Shown piece after piece: positions 590 to 46,194 of a DNA stretch of 64,000 nt. This DNA comes from an uncultured Chloroflexia bacterium (GTDB lineage Bacteria; Chloroflexota; Limnocylindria; Limnocylindrales; CSP1-4), in assembly GCA_963819655.1 (NCBI GenBank), contig CAWFXA010000002.1:1280001-1344000 (forward strand). Reading direction: 5' to 3'. The first letter of the stretch is position 1, and each line of letters begins with the position of its first letter. Under the pieces are notes generated by a model, which made no database searches, was not told the DNA's origin, and worked only from the letters and a program-made list of their open reading frames with translations. The translations under genes were made by a program, and so were the position numbers.

Positions 590-676
590 TCATCCACAGG
601 GTTATCCACACGCCGGCCACAGCCCGGATATTCCCGTGGACAGCCGTCACGAGATCGGTCCGATGTTCGTGGATAA
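590..676. promoter_or_regulatory. DnaA-box cluster
   Basis: TTATCCACA 602-610 (perfect), TCATCCACA 590-598, reverse-strand TTATCCACG 668-676 and CTGTCCACG 635-643. Confidence 0.7.
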
Positions 677-681
677 GCGCG

Positions 682-711
682 TTGACCGTCGGTTGAGCCG
701 GCCGATACCGT
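682..711 (+). promoter_or_regulatory. Putative sigma70 promoter
   Basis: TTGACC (682-687), 18-nt spacer, TACCGT (706-711), ending about 7 nt before the structured region. Confidence 0.5.
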
Positions 712-718
712 AGGTCTT

Positions 719-906
719 GCCCGAAGGGGCCGACAGGACGCAGAAACCGAGATCACATCAAGGGCCTTCGTCCGCCGCCGGTCGCTTCGGGCGCTTCGTT
801 GCCCGCGGTCGCGCGGCCGTCTCACCGCGGCCCCGTCCACGGGAAGGCGCCCGACGGGACGCGATCGGCATCCCGGTGTCGATACTTCCGTCGGGCGCGA
901 CGAAGC
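719..906 (+). ncRNA. Putative structured RNA or 5' leader of unknown family
   Basis: Two adjacent closed domains (GCCCGAAG/CTTCGGGC 719-792; GCTTCGTTGC/GCGACGAAGC 793-906) with internal hairpins; non-canonical pairs are G-U on the plus strand. Confidence 0.5.
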
Positions 907-919
907 CTCCCCCCGTTCC

Positions 920-950
920 GGCCACCCCGGCCACCCCGGCCACCCCGGCC
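920..950 (+). repeat. 9-bp tandem repeat (GGCCACCCC) x3+
   Basis: Read directly from sequence. Confidence 0.85.
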
Positions 951-982
951 TGTCATGCTGGCCACCCATGCCGGAGGCCGCC

Positions 983-1876
983 ATGTCTGATGCCGCCACT
1001 GTGACCCTCGACCCCAGCCAGCCGATTCCCCCGAGCGCCCAACCAGAGCGCATCGCCGCGTTGGTCGCCGCCGTGCGTGACAGGACGAACGTCGTGCCGG
1101 ACGTCGGGATCGTGCTCGGGTCGGGATTGGGCGGCCTCGCGGACGAGCTGGAAGCGCCGGTGGCGATCCCGTTCGACGTCCTGCCGGGTTGGCCGGCGGC
1201 GACAGCCCCGGGGCACGTGGGCAGGCTCCTGGTCGGGCGCCTCGGCGGTCGCCCGGTGGTGATGCTTCAGGGCCGGTTCCACCTCTACGAGGGAAACGCT
1301 CCAGGCTTGGTCGTCCAGCCGGTGCTGCTCTTCCGCGCCCTTGGAGCCCGGATCGTGGTGCTGACGAACGCAGCCGGGGGGCTGGATCCGTCCTTCGGTC
1401 CCGGGACGCTCATGATCCTGAACGATCACATCAACCTGACCGGGCGGTCGCCGCTGATCGGCCGCAACGCCGACACACTCGGCCCGCGCTTCCCGGACAT
1501 GACCGAGGCCTGGAGCCCGCGGCTCCGGACACGCCTGCACGCCGCTGCGGCTGACGAGGGCGTCGACGTCCGCGAGGGCGTCTATGTCGGCCTCGCCGGC
1601 CCGAGCTACGAGACGCCGGCCGAGGTGCGGATGCTGGCCGCACTCGGGGGTGACGCGGTCGGCATGTCGACCGTCCTCGAATGCATCGCTGCCCGCTGGG
1701 TCGGCCTCGAGGTCTGCGGGGTGTCGCTGGTCACCAACGCCGGGGCGGGGTACAGCGGCGAGCTGCTGACCCATGAGGAGGTCCTCGAAGCGGGCTCTGT
1801 CGCCGGTCCCCGGCTCGCCCGCGTGATCCGCCGCTTCGTGACCGACCTGGGCGATGAGGCGGTGGGGGCCGGATGA
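983..1876 (+). CDS. punA: Purine-nucleoside phosphorylase (trimeric, PunA/XapA type)
   Basis: IVLGSGLG, GHVG, QGRFHLYEG, TNAAGG, GPSYET, VGMST motifs; GGAGG RBS before ATG 983. Confidence 0.92.
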   Translation: MSDAATVTLDPSQPIPPSAQPERIAALVAAVRDRTNVVPDVGIVLGSGLGGLADELEAPVAIPFDVLPGWPAATAPGHVGRLLVGRLGGRPVVMLQGRFHLYEGNAPGLVVQPVLLFRALGARIVVLTNAAGGLDPSFGPGTLMILNDHINLTGRSPLIGRNADTLGPRFPDMTEAWSPRLRTRLHAAAADEGVDVREGVYVGLAGPSYETPAEVRMLAALGGDAVGMSTVLECIAARWVGLEVCGVSLVTNAGAGYSGELLTHEEVLEAGSVAGPRLARVIRRFVTDLGDEAVGAG

Positions 1877-3003
1877 CGGCCCGAGGGTCGGCGCCGGTGC
1901 TCAGCCGGCGCGTCCTGAACAGGACGCTCCTGGCGCGACAGCTGCTGCTCGAGCGCGTCGATCGGCCGGTGGTGGAGGTGATCGAGCATCTCGTCGGGAT
2001 GCAGGCGCAGGAGCCGCCCGATCCGTACGTCGGCCTGTGGTCGCGCATCGCCGGCTTCGACCCGCAGGACCTGAGCCGCCTGATCGAGGAGCGCGGGGCC
2101 GTCCGGATGGGGCACCTGCGCGGCACGCTGCACCTCGTGACGGCGCGCGACGCCACGGCGCAGTACCCGATCCTCGCCGACGTCATGGCCCGCTCGTGGC
2201 GCAGCAGCCCGTTCGTGAAGCGACTCGTCGGCGTCGACATGGATGCGGTGATCGCGCGCGCGCGCGAAGTGCTGGAAGAACGGCCGCGGACGCCGAGTGA
2301 GCTCGGTGCGGCACTCGCGCCGGGATGGCCCGACCGCGATGCCACGTCGCTGGCGTACGCCGCCAGGTTCCTGCTGCCGCTCGTTCAGGTCACGCCCCGC
2401 GGCCTGTGGCAGAAGACGGGCCGACCGACCAACACCACTGCGGAGGCGTGGCTGGGCCGTGGGATGGACCCGACCCCGAGCGTCGATGGCCTCATCCTGC
2501 GCTACCTGGCGGCCTTCGGGCCGGCGACGGTGAGCGACATGCGGGTCTGGTCGTGGCTGACCGGCCTGCGCGAGGTCGTGGAGCGCCTGCGCCCGAGGCT
2601 GCGGACGTTCCAGGACGAGGGAGGCCGCGAGTTGTTCGACGTGCCGGACGGCCTGATCGCGGACGCGGGCCTGCCTGCCCCGGTCCGGTTCCTGCCCTTC
2701 TACGACAACGTCATCCTGTCGCACGACGACCGATCAAGGATCCTGACGGCAGGACTGACCATCAACGAGTTGACGTGGAAGGGCGGGGTCCTCGTCGACG
2801 GGTTCATTTGCGCGGGGTGGCGCGTGAACCGTGACGGCGGCGGCAAGGCCCGCGGCGGTCGCACCGCCACGAACATGGTGACACTGTACGCCCCGGTCAC
2901 GGGCGCCCAGCGTGCCGAGATCGAGGAGGAGGCCGGGCGCGTCCTGGCCTTCGTGGCGGGCGACGCGGAGAGCCGCCGGGTCGAGCTGGTCGACGCCGGC
3001 TAG
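1873..3003 (+). CDS. AlkZ/YcaQ-family (HTH_42) winged-helix DNA glycosylase
   Basis: LNRTLLARQLLL, QAQ catalytic motif, GLWSR, RGTLH, RYLAAFGPAT, RFLPFYDN. Confidence 0.85.
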   Translation: MTARGSAPVLSRRVLNRTLLARQLLLERVDRPVVEVIEHLVGMQAQEPPDPYVGLWSRIAGFDPQDLSRLIEERGAVRMGHLRGTLHLVTARDATAQYPILADVMARSWRSSPFVKRLVGVDMDAVIARAREVLEERPRTPSELGAALAPGWPDRDATSLAYAARFLLPLVQVTPRGLWQKTGRPTNTTAEAWLGRGMDPTPSVDGLILRYLAAFGPATVSDMRVWSWLTGLREVVERLRPRLRTFQDEGGRELFDVPDGLIADAGLPAPVRFLPFYDNVILSHDDRSRILTAGLTINELTWKGGVLVDGFICAGWRVNRDGGGKARGGRTATNMVTLYAPVTGAQRAEIEEEAGRVLAFVAGDAESRRVELVDAG

Positions 3004-45216: not shown

Positions 45217-46194
45217 GTGACCGACACGGAACGCCGCCTCGAGCCGGGTGAGGCGCTCGACCATGCCGAGGCTATCGACGCCGATCGAGCGCTGCTCGTC
45301 GAGCTCGAGCCGGAGGCCGGGCGCCTGTTCGATCGGCACGTCAAGGTCGCGCAGGAGTGGTTCCCGCACGAGTACATCCCGTATCGACTCGGTCGGGACT
45401 TCGACAAGGAGCCGTGGACGCCCGACCAGCCCCGGTTGACCGGTGTCGCGCAGACGGCCTTCGAGATCGGCCTCCTCACCGAGGACAACCTGCCCTCGTA
45501 TCACCGGCTGATCCATGGGATGTTCGGCAAGGGCGACGGGGCGTGGATCAATTGGGTCGGCCGCTGGACGGCTGAGGAAGGGCGCCACGCGATCGTGCTG
45601 CGCGATTACCTGACCGTCACGCGGAACATCGATCCTGTCTTGCTGGAGCGCGGGCGGATGACCCAGCTCCAGCAGGGCTACGAGCACGAAGCGCCGAGCA
45701 CGCTTCGTGGGCTGGCCTACGTGGCGTTCCAGGAGCTGGCGACCCGGATCGCGCATCGGAACACGGGGCGCTATTCGTCCGACCCGGTGGCCGACAGGAT
45801 CATGGTCCGGATCGCCGCCGACGAGAACCTCCACATGGTGTTCTACCGCGACATCCTCGGGGCGGCGCTGAAGGTCCAGCCATCCGCTGCGGTGCGCGCG
45901 ATCGTCGACGAGGTCCTCGCGTTCGAGATGCCTGGCGCCGGCATCCCGGGCTTCATCCGCAAGGCCGCGCAGATCGCGAAGGCCGGCATCTACGACCTGC
46001 GCGTCCACCACGACGAGGTGATCATGCCGATTCTGCGCCACTGGCGGATCTTCGAGCTCGAGGGGCTCGACGCCGCCGCGGAGGACGCCCGGCGCCGGCT
46101 CGCGGAGCACCTGGCGGCACTCGACGAGGCGGCGCGCCGGTTCGAGGAGAAGGTCGCGGGGTCGAACGTGCCGCGGATCGCGTCCACGGGATAG
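45217..46194 (+). CDS. Soluble acyl-ACP desaturase (DesA1-like, di-iron)
   Basis: LLTEDNLPSY, WTAEEGRH, YVAFQE, ADENLH; AGGAG RBS before GTG. Confidence 0.92.
   Translation: MTDTERRLEPGEALDHAEAIDADRALLVELEPEAGRLFDRHVKVAQEWFPHEYIPYRLGRDFDKEPWTPDQPRLTGVAQTAFEIGLLTEDNLPSYHRLIHGMFGKGDGAWINWVGRWTAEEGRHAIVLRDYLTVTRNIDPVLLERGRMTQLQQGYEHEAPSTLRGLAYVAFQELATRIAHRNTGRYSSDPVADRIMVRIAADENLHMVFYRDILGAALKVQPSAAVRAIVDEVLAFEMPGAGIPGFIRKAAQIAKAGIYDLRVHHDEVIMPILRHWRIFELEGLDAAAEDARRRLAEHLAALDEAARRFEEKVAGSNVPRIASTG

Follow-up and report, generated by a model that had tools for sequence, protein, structure and literature searches.

Introduction

Regulon-wide leader-terminator systems include the T-box, PyrR, LicT/SacY RAT and ANTAR leaders. 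At promoters, DnaA acts as a transcription factor, as in dnaA autoregulation and at nrdAB, guaBA and sda of B. subtilis, and genes of purine and nucleotide metabolism are among its known targets. The chromosomal sites datA and DARS titrate and recycle DnaA, respectively, and CsrB and RsmZ are multi-hairpin, protein-titrating RNAs with a GGA motif. The present analysis concerns a structured element at positions 719-906 of a 64,000-nt stretch of DNA from an uncultured Chloroflexota bacterium of the class Limnocylindria (contig CAWFXA010000002.1; the whole stretch is referred to as the window). The element lies upstream of a purine nucleoside phosphorylase (PNP) gene, punA, and an alkZ-like gene. 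An earlier note on this DNA had described it as a novel small RNA (sRNA) or as a nucleotide-sensing leader, possibly linked to DnaA.

The element was found to consist of two domains, the first of which recurs in promoter-plus-leader units termed cassettes. These share an upstream DnaA-type box, a GCCCGRAGGGGC word at the 5' end with its pairing partner at the 3' end, a variable middle and a T-rich tail. That 719-906 encodes a real RNA, belongs to the cassette family and is tied to PNP is, taken jointly, highly probable. With moderate confidence, it is read as the 5' leader or attenuator RNA of the punA-alkZ operon under a promoter with DnaA-type boxes.

The cassettes resemble the T-box, PyrR, RAT and ANTAR systems in that many unrelated genes per genome share a common leader module and presumed terminator with gene-specific parts inside, and in that short repeated hairpin motifs are the likely recognition sites. 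They differ in showing no sequence or Rfam match to any of these systems, in the split stem of the presumed terminator, with the transcript's first 13 nt as its 5' arm and the leader body as its loop, and in a promoter with a DnaA-type box that is part of the conserved cassette. As at DnaA-regulated promoters, boxes with at least 8/9 matches to the consensus lie at or just upstream of the promoter, but the proximal box stands at a fixed distance in about 100 sampled cassettes, the phased four-box array of the PNP cassettes is kept across genera and the unit begins with a structured RNA. With CsrB and RsmZ the cassettes share the occurrence of one short motif in several hairpin loops at variable copy number. 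However, their motif is GAUYRCMUCAA and not GGA, the RNAs stand in cis before genes, and many carry a single copy. For the his operon of E. coli, a published account proposes DnaA-dependent attenuation, with DnaA binding box-like sequences in the leader RNA (PMC10989985). The likeness lies in DnaA being linked to attenuation in a leader with a stem-loop terminator, and the difference in the location of the cassette boxes, which are in the DNA upstream of the promoter, with no conserved box-like sequence in the RNA.

Results

Fold and conservation of the element

RNAfold of the + strand of 719-906 returned the same two adjacent domains that the earlier note had drawn by eye. The minimum free energy (MFE) was -111 kcal/mol compared with -88.1 +/- 4.5 for 200 dinucleotide shuffles (z -5.09), none of which was as good. 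For the - strand, z was -1.91 and 8 of 200 shuffles were as good. Full-length counterparts were detected by DNA search (E <= 1e-56) in 21 of 24 genomes of the same genus; two further genomes gave weak partial matches and one gave none. The same kind of search for the element yielded no match in the 16 genomes of a sister genus with small genomes. The window was aligned with 19 of the 21 counterparts, giving 20 sequences. Identity was high from about 665 to 907 and fell off on both flanks. The conserved block comprised (C/G)GTGGATAA, TTGAC, 18 nt further TA..GT, and then GCCCGAAGG through to GAAG(C/U).

In these 20 sequences, pairing was kept in 98.7% of cells and nine pairs changed on both sides. 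None of 500 column shuffles reached the observed values, and slid controls paired in 32-48%. Covariation among homologues, which the earlier note had named as a check, is thus present within the genus, and more was found across genera. Single helices had to be redrawn. The closing helix of domain 1 exists as proposed but was corrected to 13 positions, with nt 719-731 (GCCCGAAGGGGCC) pairing with 780-792 (GGUCGCUUCGGGC), one G.G mismatch in this copy and the T-rich tail directly following. What had been called an A-rich loop is a small hairpin (747-763) displaying GAUCACAUCAA. The proposed domain 2 hairpin CCGCGGT/ACCGCGG found no backing in the comparative data, which instead gave GGCCGU/RCGGCC with an invariant loop and four of six pairs changed on both sides. 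A CCCG/CGGG helix at the foot of the variable arm of domain 2 was recognised by eye across genera.

The element matches no Rfam family, in line with its first description as unrecognised. A search of the whole window against Rfam 15 at gathering thresholds gave nothing at 719-906, and a search of 520-1050 at E <= 10 gave four chance-level matches (best E 0.98). For 20 other cassette loci, the only Rfam match was a sub-threshold sucA (30.3 bits against a threshold of 40). 6S RNA was rejected because the fold has two side-by-side domains, in contrast to the single long hairpin of about 185 nt with a central bubble of 6S; a search of the 91%-complete assembly for RF00013 (6S) at E <= 10 came back empty. 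A literature search, with supplements outside its scope, found no description of the cassette family. The full 231-nt element occurs once in the 3.49-Mb assembly, which rules out a repeat or mobile element, and elsewhere in the genome only the promoter and the first 12 nt recur.

The cassette family

Cassettes were searched with the pattern GTGGATRA-N36-48-GCCCGRAGGGGC in 200 sampled other genomes of the class, with the reversed pattern as a control. The pattern was present in 53 of 60 other genomes of the own taxonomic family (f1), representing at least 17 genera, mostly with one to four copies each. Beyond f1, it was found in 1 of 7 genomes of f2, in 0 of 66 of f3 and in 1 of 66 of f4, the last probably spurious. 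The reversed pattern gave no match in the sampled genomes. The own genome has at least five cassettes: C2:63800, C2:1026679, the window copy (669-730) and the tandem pair C3:551128 and C3:551360. The paralogous RNA at C2:1026679 has 183 nt. Judged from these sequence patterns, domain 1 is a member of a lineage-specific promoter-plus-leader cassette family of Limnocylindria-class Chloroflexota. Of the proposed novel sRNA, the novelty stood, given the lack of an Rfam match; the stand-alone view overlooked that domain 1 belongs to a family serving many genes.

The common architecture was analysed in 97 loci, comprising 92 fetched matches and the five own-genome copies. The 3' word [CT]T[CT]CGGG[CT] followed 73-276 nt further on in 90 of them. 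Positions 1-8 of the closing helix pair by construction of the search, but positions 9-13 were left unconstrained and were paired in 77, 89, 88, 89 and 69 of the 90 loci, respectively. Position 6 was A-U in 62 loci, G-C in 11, G-U in 16 and A.C in one. Positions 10 and 11 were mostly G.U, and the G.U pairs of the helix fit only the + strand. The first 10 nt after the helix contained four to six T in 84 of 90 loci, at a genome T fraction of 0.15.

Cassette bodies vary by type, yet reuse few hairpins. Motif A is a loop of the form GAUYRCMUCAA. By regular expression, it was present in 36 of 90 RNAs with one to three copies (zero to three over all types), and by eye up to four or five copies were counted in PNP leaders. 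Motif B is a GGUG/CAUC stem with varied stable tetraloop caps. A 73-nt type with one motif A loop (C2:63800-63872; L035, L037, L038, L042, L044, L048 and L097) stands before a conserved protein of about 250-310 aa with no Pfam or NCBIfam match. At G000:C3:98626-98850, four DnaA-type boxes 11-12 nt apart are followed by a -10-like TAGGAT and about 130 nt, at the end of which stands a hairpin plus GGUUUCGUGGUG. This cassette lacks GCCCGRAGGGGC. The regulon is probably larger than the search pattern shows.

Predicted promoter and DnaA-type boxes

The earlier note had placed DnaA boxes upstream of the element, and boxes were indeed located at four positions before a predicted promoter (Table 1). 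They were assigned through the DnaA-box consensus motif, and DnaA as the protein that reads them is inferred from that motif. A dnaA gene is present in the genome (C2:469295-470596). Within the genus, both promoter hexamers are conserved and the spacer is variable; over the 97 loci, the -10 keeps TA...T. The predicted -10 ends 7 nt before G719, where the RNA 5' end had been put. A generic promoter scan made no call at this site, and the prediction of the promoter therefore rests on conservation.

In 85 of 97 cassettes, the proximal box stands 41-42 nt ahead of the 5' end of the RNA. The -35 beside this box ranges across cassettes from TTGACC to poor matches. Extra boxes with at least 8/9 matches numbered 34 in 7,275 nt upstream, compared with one in 66,246 nt of downstream control. 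The box array was examined in 31 PNP loci, in 29 of which the cassette was located by pattern. All 29 showed boxes at fixed offsets from the proximal box; the four stand at about -67, -56, -34 and -1. The outer two, which in the window lie at -79 and -67, run opposite to the proximal box, and the third shares its direction and lies between -33 and -36. Every one of the 29 loci has two or more boxes in the direction of the proximal box, and 23 have two or more against it. Spacings of about 11, 22 and 33 bp place the boxes on one helix face. Variation in the box words (TTATCCACA, TTGTCCACA and TCGTCCACA) is confined to positions outside the TCCAC core. At the sequence level, this phased four-box array, conserved in 29 PNP loci, speaks for the proposed link to DnaA. 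Boxes 1, 2 and 4 form the densest of only three clusters of boxes with at least 8/9 matches in the whole assembly. The word GTGGATAA has 14 sites in the own genome, about half of them at cassette loci. Two opposed, near-perfect DnaA boxes were also observed at G000:C3:935527-935569, just upstream of a parA/soj-like gene.

Association with downstream genes

Downstream genes were called with a filter on third-position GC content (GC3), which identifies real frames in high-GC DNA. The first GC3-supported open reading frame lay on the same strand, no more than 400 nt away, in 73 of 97 loci; it had the opposite orientation in 10, and 14 loci had none or another arrangement. Clustering of the downstream proteins showed that each RNA type is tied to one gene family. 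Motif A RNAs of 73-222 nt precede PNP, an RNA type of about 275 nt precedes a GT2 glycosyltransferase, one of about 183 nt an MFS transporter and one of about 185 nt an inorganic pyrophosphatase. The motif B RNA types precede Rce1-like, acyltransferase-3, PLP-dehydratase, MBL-fold and PMT_2 proteins.

PNP was directly downstream and co-oriented in 50 loci from 15 genera. These comprised 20/20 loci of the genus, 19 found by the pattern and 11 of 12 found with the domain 2 model, the twelfth being cut by a contig end. In 18 loci outside the genus, the position of moaA, the upstream neighbour in the window, was compared. It was adjacent in 12, at least 1 kb away in three and not found within 1.5 kb in three. 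The linkage to PNP thus persists without an adjacent moaA in 6 of 18 loci, which indicates that the RNA travels with PNP and not with moaA. The earlier suggestion of a leader for the PNP-AlkZ operon is supported, as far as gene order can show, by this linkage over 50 loci and 15 genera that holds where moaA is missing or displaced.

Domain 2 and the PNP start region

Domain 2 was aligned across genera using 36 sequences from nine genera. In its 7-bp closing helix, P1, two pairs change on both sides. In P3, six pairs are double-changed (87/133, 91/129, 92/128, 93/127, 96/124 and 102/120), and the top of the helix is invariant in all 36 sequences. Neither length nor sequence is constant in the junction strands and the middle arm. 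A search with R1, a covariance model of domain 2, returned a single copy from each of 29 of the 44 other f1 genomes, and nothing from genera g4, g5 and g6 or from 106 genomes belonging to four other families. Domain 2 is absent from the PNP leaders of g6 and g17, where the tail runs almost straight into the gene. A weak match to P3 at C2:862397 was dismissed as a chance match in apparent coding sequence; the P3 top is unique in the genome.

At many loci of at least six genera (g1, g7, g9, g11, g12 and g14), domain 2 is followed by GCGGGCCUC, ...CCGUC..CCCCUGGACG..., and then CUGGAGGCCCGC-AUG, as recognised by eye. By the same inspection, GCGGGCCUC can pair with the Shine-Dalgarno (SD) sequence and the bases up to the start codon, forming a GCGGGCCUC...GGAGGCCCGC-AUG helix. 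In the sub-clade of the window, this conserved SD-burying platform is swapped for other sequence, including the threefold GGCCACCCC. In the window itself, GCCUCC at 905-910 could pair with GGAGGC at 973-978 (by eye); in the fold of 719-1000, the MFE and centroid structures disagree.

Pairings of motif A with other parts of the transcript were also considered. Pairing with the PNP start region (UGAUG) was dropped because it exists in some genera and not in others. Judged by eye, motif A could also form 8 bp with GGUGUCGAU of domain 2, leaving one bulge, but this was set aside as a mechanism because the motif also occurs in leaders without domain 2.

Metatranscriptome coverage

Metatranscriptome contigs from four runs in three studies cover 709-958, with the peak of summed depth at 770-796. 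Neither 581-688 nor 959-1093 had contig cover, and these two stretches were left out of the evidence; over the PNP coding sequence, depth was low. Several contigs bridge the junction of domains 1 and 2, for example 709-804 (without differences), 776-892 and 743-896. One contig ends at 906 with a loose end that resembles the platform sequence of a relative. These contigs lend weak support to both domains being on one RNA, with the end of domain 1 read through.

Discussion

The reading of 719-906 as a cis-acting leader of the punA-alkZ operon is preferred because the promoter is fixed, the RNA has an end-to-end helix with a T-rich tail, the genes are co-oriented, the bodies are gene-specific and the PNP leaders have an SD-burying helix. 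Attenuation as its mode of action is proposed tentatively. DnaA, or another protein reading TCCACA-core sites, would set promoter activity from the box beside the variable -35. The closing helix and its tail would form a leaky intrinsic terminator; a terminator-like GC-rich stem with a T-enriched tail is present at the end of domain 1. Termination would release a stable, closed small RNA, either a by-product or with a second function, and read-through would give the operon mRNA. A trans-acting factor, most likely a protein, would tune read-through and translation via the repeated loop motif and the invariant P3 top. The sensor is more likely to be a protein than a small molecule, because proteins are the more typical readers of repeated loops and of an invariant helix top with fixed G.U pairs.

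Several observations weigh against a DnaA-controlled leader with a terminator. A terminator scan made no call, and the tail is not a clean U run. Contigs cross the end of domain 1, so the presumed terminator is leaky at best. No convincing mutually exclusive antiterminator and no conserved competitor of the 3' arm were seen in the cassette folds, in which only a 4-bp self-hairpin of the first 12 nt was noticed by eye. Two of the contigs, both of low depth, already start at 709, before the predicted +1, and assembled contigs as such show no ends, strand or level and may stem from DNA carry-over. An opposite-strand gene faces 10 of the 97 cassettes. In g3 (L161, L163 and L165) and g10 (L062-L064), there is no SD, and a -10-like TATCCT stands 5-8 nt ahead of the PNP start codon. 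This hexamer may give PNP a promoter of its own and a leaderless mRNA, in which case the RNA may be a separate unit there. No box cluster was found upstream of dnaA and the origin was not located, so the boxes could belong to another protein.

A stand-alone, trans-acting sRNA or protein-titrating decoy, with the PNP neighbourhood reflecting co-regulation or plain synteny, is unlikely. On that view, the repeated loop motif would sequester a protein or base-pair with mRNA targets. The cassette has its own promoter and a terminator-like end, and its paired ends suit a stable RNA, but contigs read through the end of domain 1. A loop motif in one to three copies by regular expression, and up to four or five by eye, would be expected of a multi-site decoy RNA. 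Independent units would also fit the tandem cassettes C3:551128 and C3:551360 and the 24 of 97 loci with no co-oriented gene within 400 nt; on the other side stand 73 loci with a close co-oriented gene against 10 with an opposite one, and a pairing of RNA type and gene family that is kept across genera despite changed upstream genes. The possible separate PNP promoter in g3 and g10 would uncouple RNA and gene, whereas domain 2 and the SD-burying helix form an unbroken stretch from the RNA to the start codon. The contig depth is greater on the RNA than on the PNP coding part, though such depth cannot rank genes. The roles of trans-acting sRNA and cis-leader are not mutually exclusive.

A small-molecule riboswitch, in which domain 2 or the whole RNA would act as a purine, nucleoside or other metabolite aptamer and control PNP translation via the SD-burying helix, is improbable. 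The position directly upstream of a nucleoside-catabolic gene and the single-copy, gene-specific nature of domain 2 would suit such a switch, but domain 1 is a generic scaffold common to unrelated genes and no known riboswitch family matches. Domain 2 does offer covarying helices around a three-way junction, with an SD-sequestering helix next to it; its conserved nucleotides, however, lie in helices, especially at the P3 top, and the junction strands vary, the reverse of a typical ligand pocket. The nucleotide sensing suggested in the earlier note is unsupported for the same reasons: motif A copies vary in number, domain 2 is dispensable in the two genera g6 and g17, and the conserved positions are helical. 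A primary function of the array at the DNA level, as a datA- or DARS-like site for DnaA titration or recycling with RNA transcription secondary, is highly improbable: the array is the densest box cluster (at least 8/9) in the assembly, its box positions are retained with a phasing of about 11, 22 and 33 bp and nothing comparable lies upstream of dnaA, but the fixed 41-42 nt from box to RNA in 85/97 cassettes beside a variable -35 argues for promoter control, and a pure DNA site leaves the strong structural and sequence constraint on the RNA unexplained.

The operon-leader reading can be extended through the sequence of motif A. The loop GAUCACAUCAA (751-761; GAUCACCUCAA in relatives) resembles the 3' tail of the own 16S rRNA, GGATCACCTCC (C2:1622082). 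In its CCUC variant, motif A matches the first 9 nt of this tail (GATCACCTC), and 8/9 in the window copy. In a review, the KH-domain GTPase Era is described as recognising GAUCA plus the anti-SD in the 16S tail. It is conceivable, but very improbable, that the cassettes form a DnaA-commanded regulon, in which phased arrays fire split-terminator leaders whose loops mimic the 16S tail and are read by an Era-like protein or pair with SD-like sequences. Such a regulon would integrate the status of the replication initiator with that of ribosome assembly and translation, and would thereby set nucleotide salvage (PNP, pyrophosphatase) and envelope genes.

If the leader reading is true, at least nine kinds of genes, from nucleotide salvage to the cell envelope, would be wired to a single promoter-plus-leader design, and uncultured, globally common soil and freshwater bacteria would hold an unusually large and uniform DnaA regulon. 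The DNA portion of this design resembles a docking site for DnaA, the replication initiator. The cassettes would represent a new leader architecture, in which the 5' and 3' ends of one transcript join into the terminator stem. They would also allow the passage of replication status to metabolism to be studied in a clean system. The PNP copy would be the best entry point, as its box array is the most elaborate and it adds a further conserved RNA domain and a recognisable trap for the ribosome-binding site.

Gene context and minor observations

The gap of 563-982, which contains 719-906, separates the 3' end of moaA from the PNP gene. The PNP start lies 77 nt beyond domain 2 and is co-oriented with it; a second in-frame ATG is present at 968. 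The coordinates of all features are given in Table 1.

Table 1. Features at and around the RNA element, in positions of the window.
Feature	Position	Strand	Remarks
moaA	ends 562		TIGR02666
DnaA-type box 1	590-598	-	TCATCCACA as read on +
DnaA-type box 2	602-610	-	TTATCCACA; 9/9 to consensus
DnaA-type box 3	635-643	+	CGTGGACAG; GTGGA box at -33 to -36 from the proximal box in 29/29 loci
Proximal DnaA-type box	668-676	+	CGTGGATAA; 5 nt before the -35; invariant in 20/20 genus sequences
Predicted promoter	682-711	+	-35 TTGACC 682-687; 18-nt variable spacer; -10 TACCGT 706-711
Domain 1, family-type leader module	719-792	+	closed by 5' GCCCGAAGGGGCC with 3' GGUCGCUUCGGGC
Motif A hairpin	747-763	+	displays GAUCACAUCAA; invariant or nearly so in the genus; recurs in PNP and other leaders
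T-rich tail of domain 1	793-802	+	GCUUCGUUGC; also the 5' strand of P1, the closing helix of domain 2
Domain 2, PNP-specific three-way element	793-906	+	P1, variable P2 arm, long conserved P3
P3 hairpin	847-898	+	invariant top CGGCAUCC-CGGUGUCG, including invariant or near-invariant G.U pairs
Tandem repeat in spacer	920-950	+	GGCCACCCC x3; only this genome among 20 aligned
Shine-Dalgarno and likely PNP start	973-985	+	GGAGG 973-977; ATG 983-985
punA-type PNP gene	983-1876	+	NCBIfam NF006054, 345 bits (cut-off 218); Pfam PNP_UDP_1
AlkZ-like DNA glycosylase gene	1873-3003	+	Pfam PF06224, 249 bits; start overlaps PNP stop

The word GATCACATCAA also occurs inside the PNP coding sequence (1424-1434), where it encodes part of NDHIN. 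It is exact at that spot in only 1 of 20 loci of relatives and was treated as a coincidence because it is not kept there. The sole Rfam match at gathering level in the window was the ASdes TB sRNA (RF01781) at 45577-45644 on the - strand, which scored 47.8 bits (threshold 40). In mycobacteria, this family runs antisense to a desaturase gene, and the match may only reflect conserved desaturase coding sequence.

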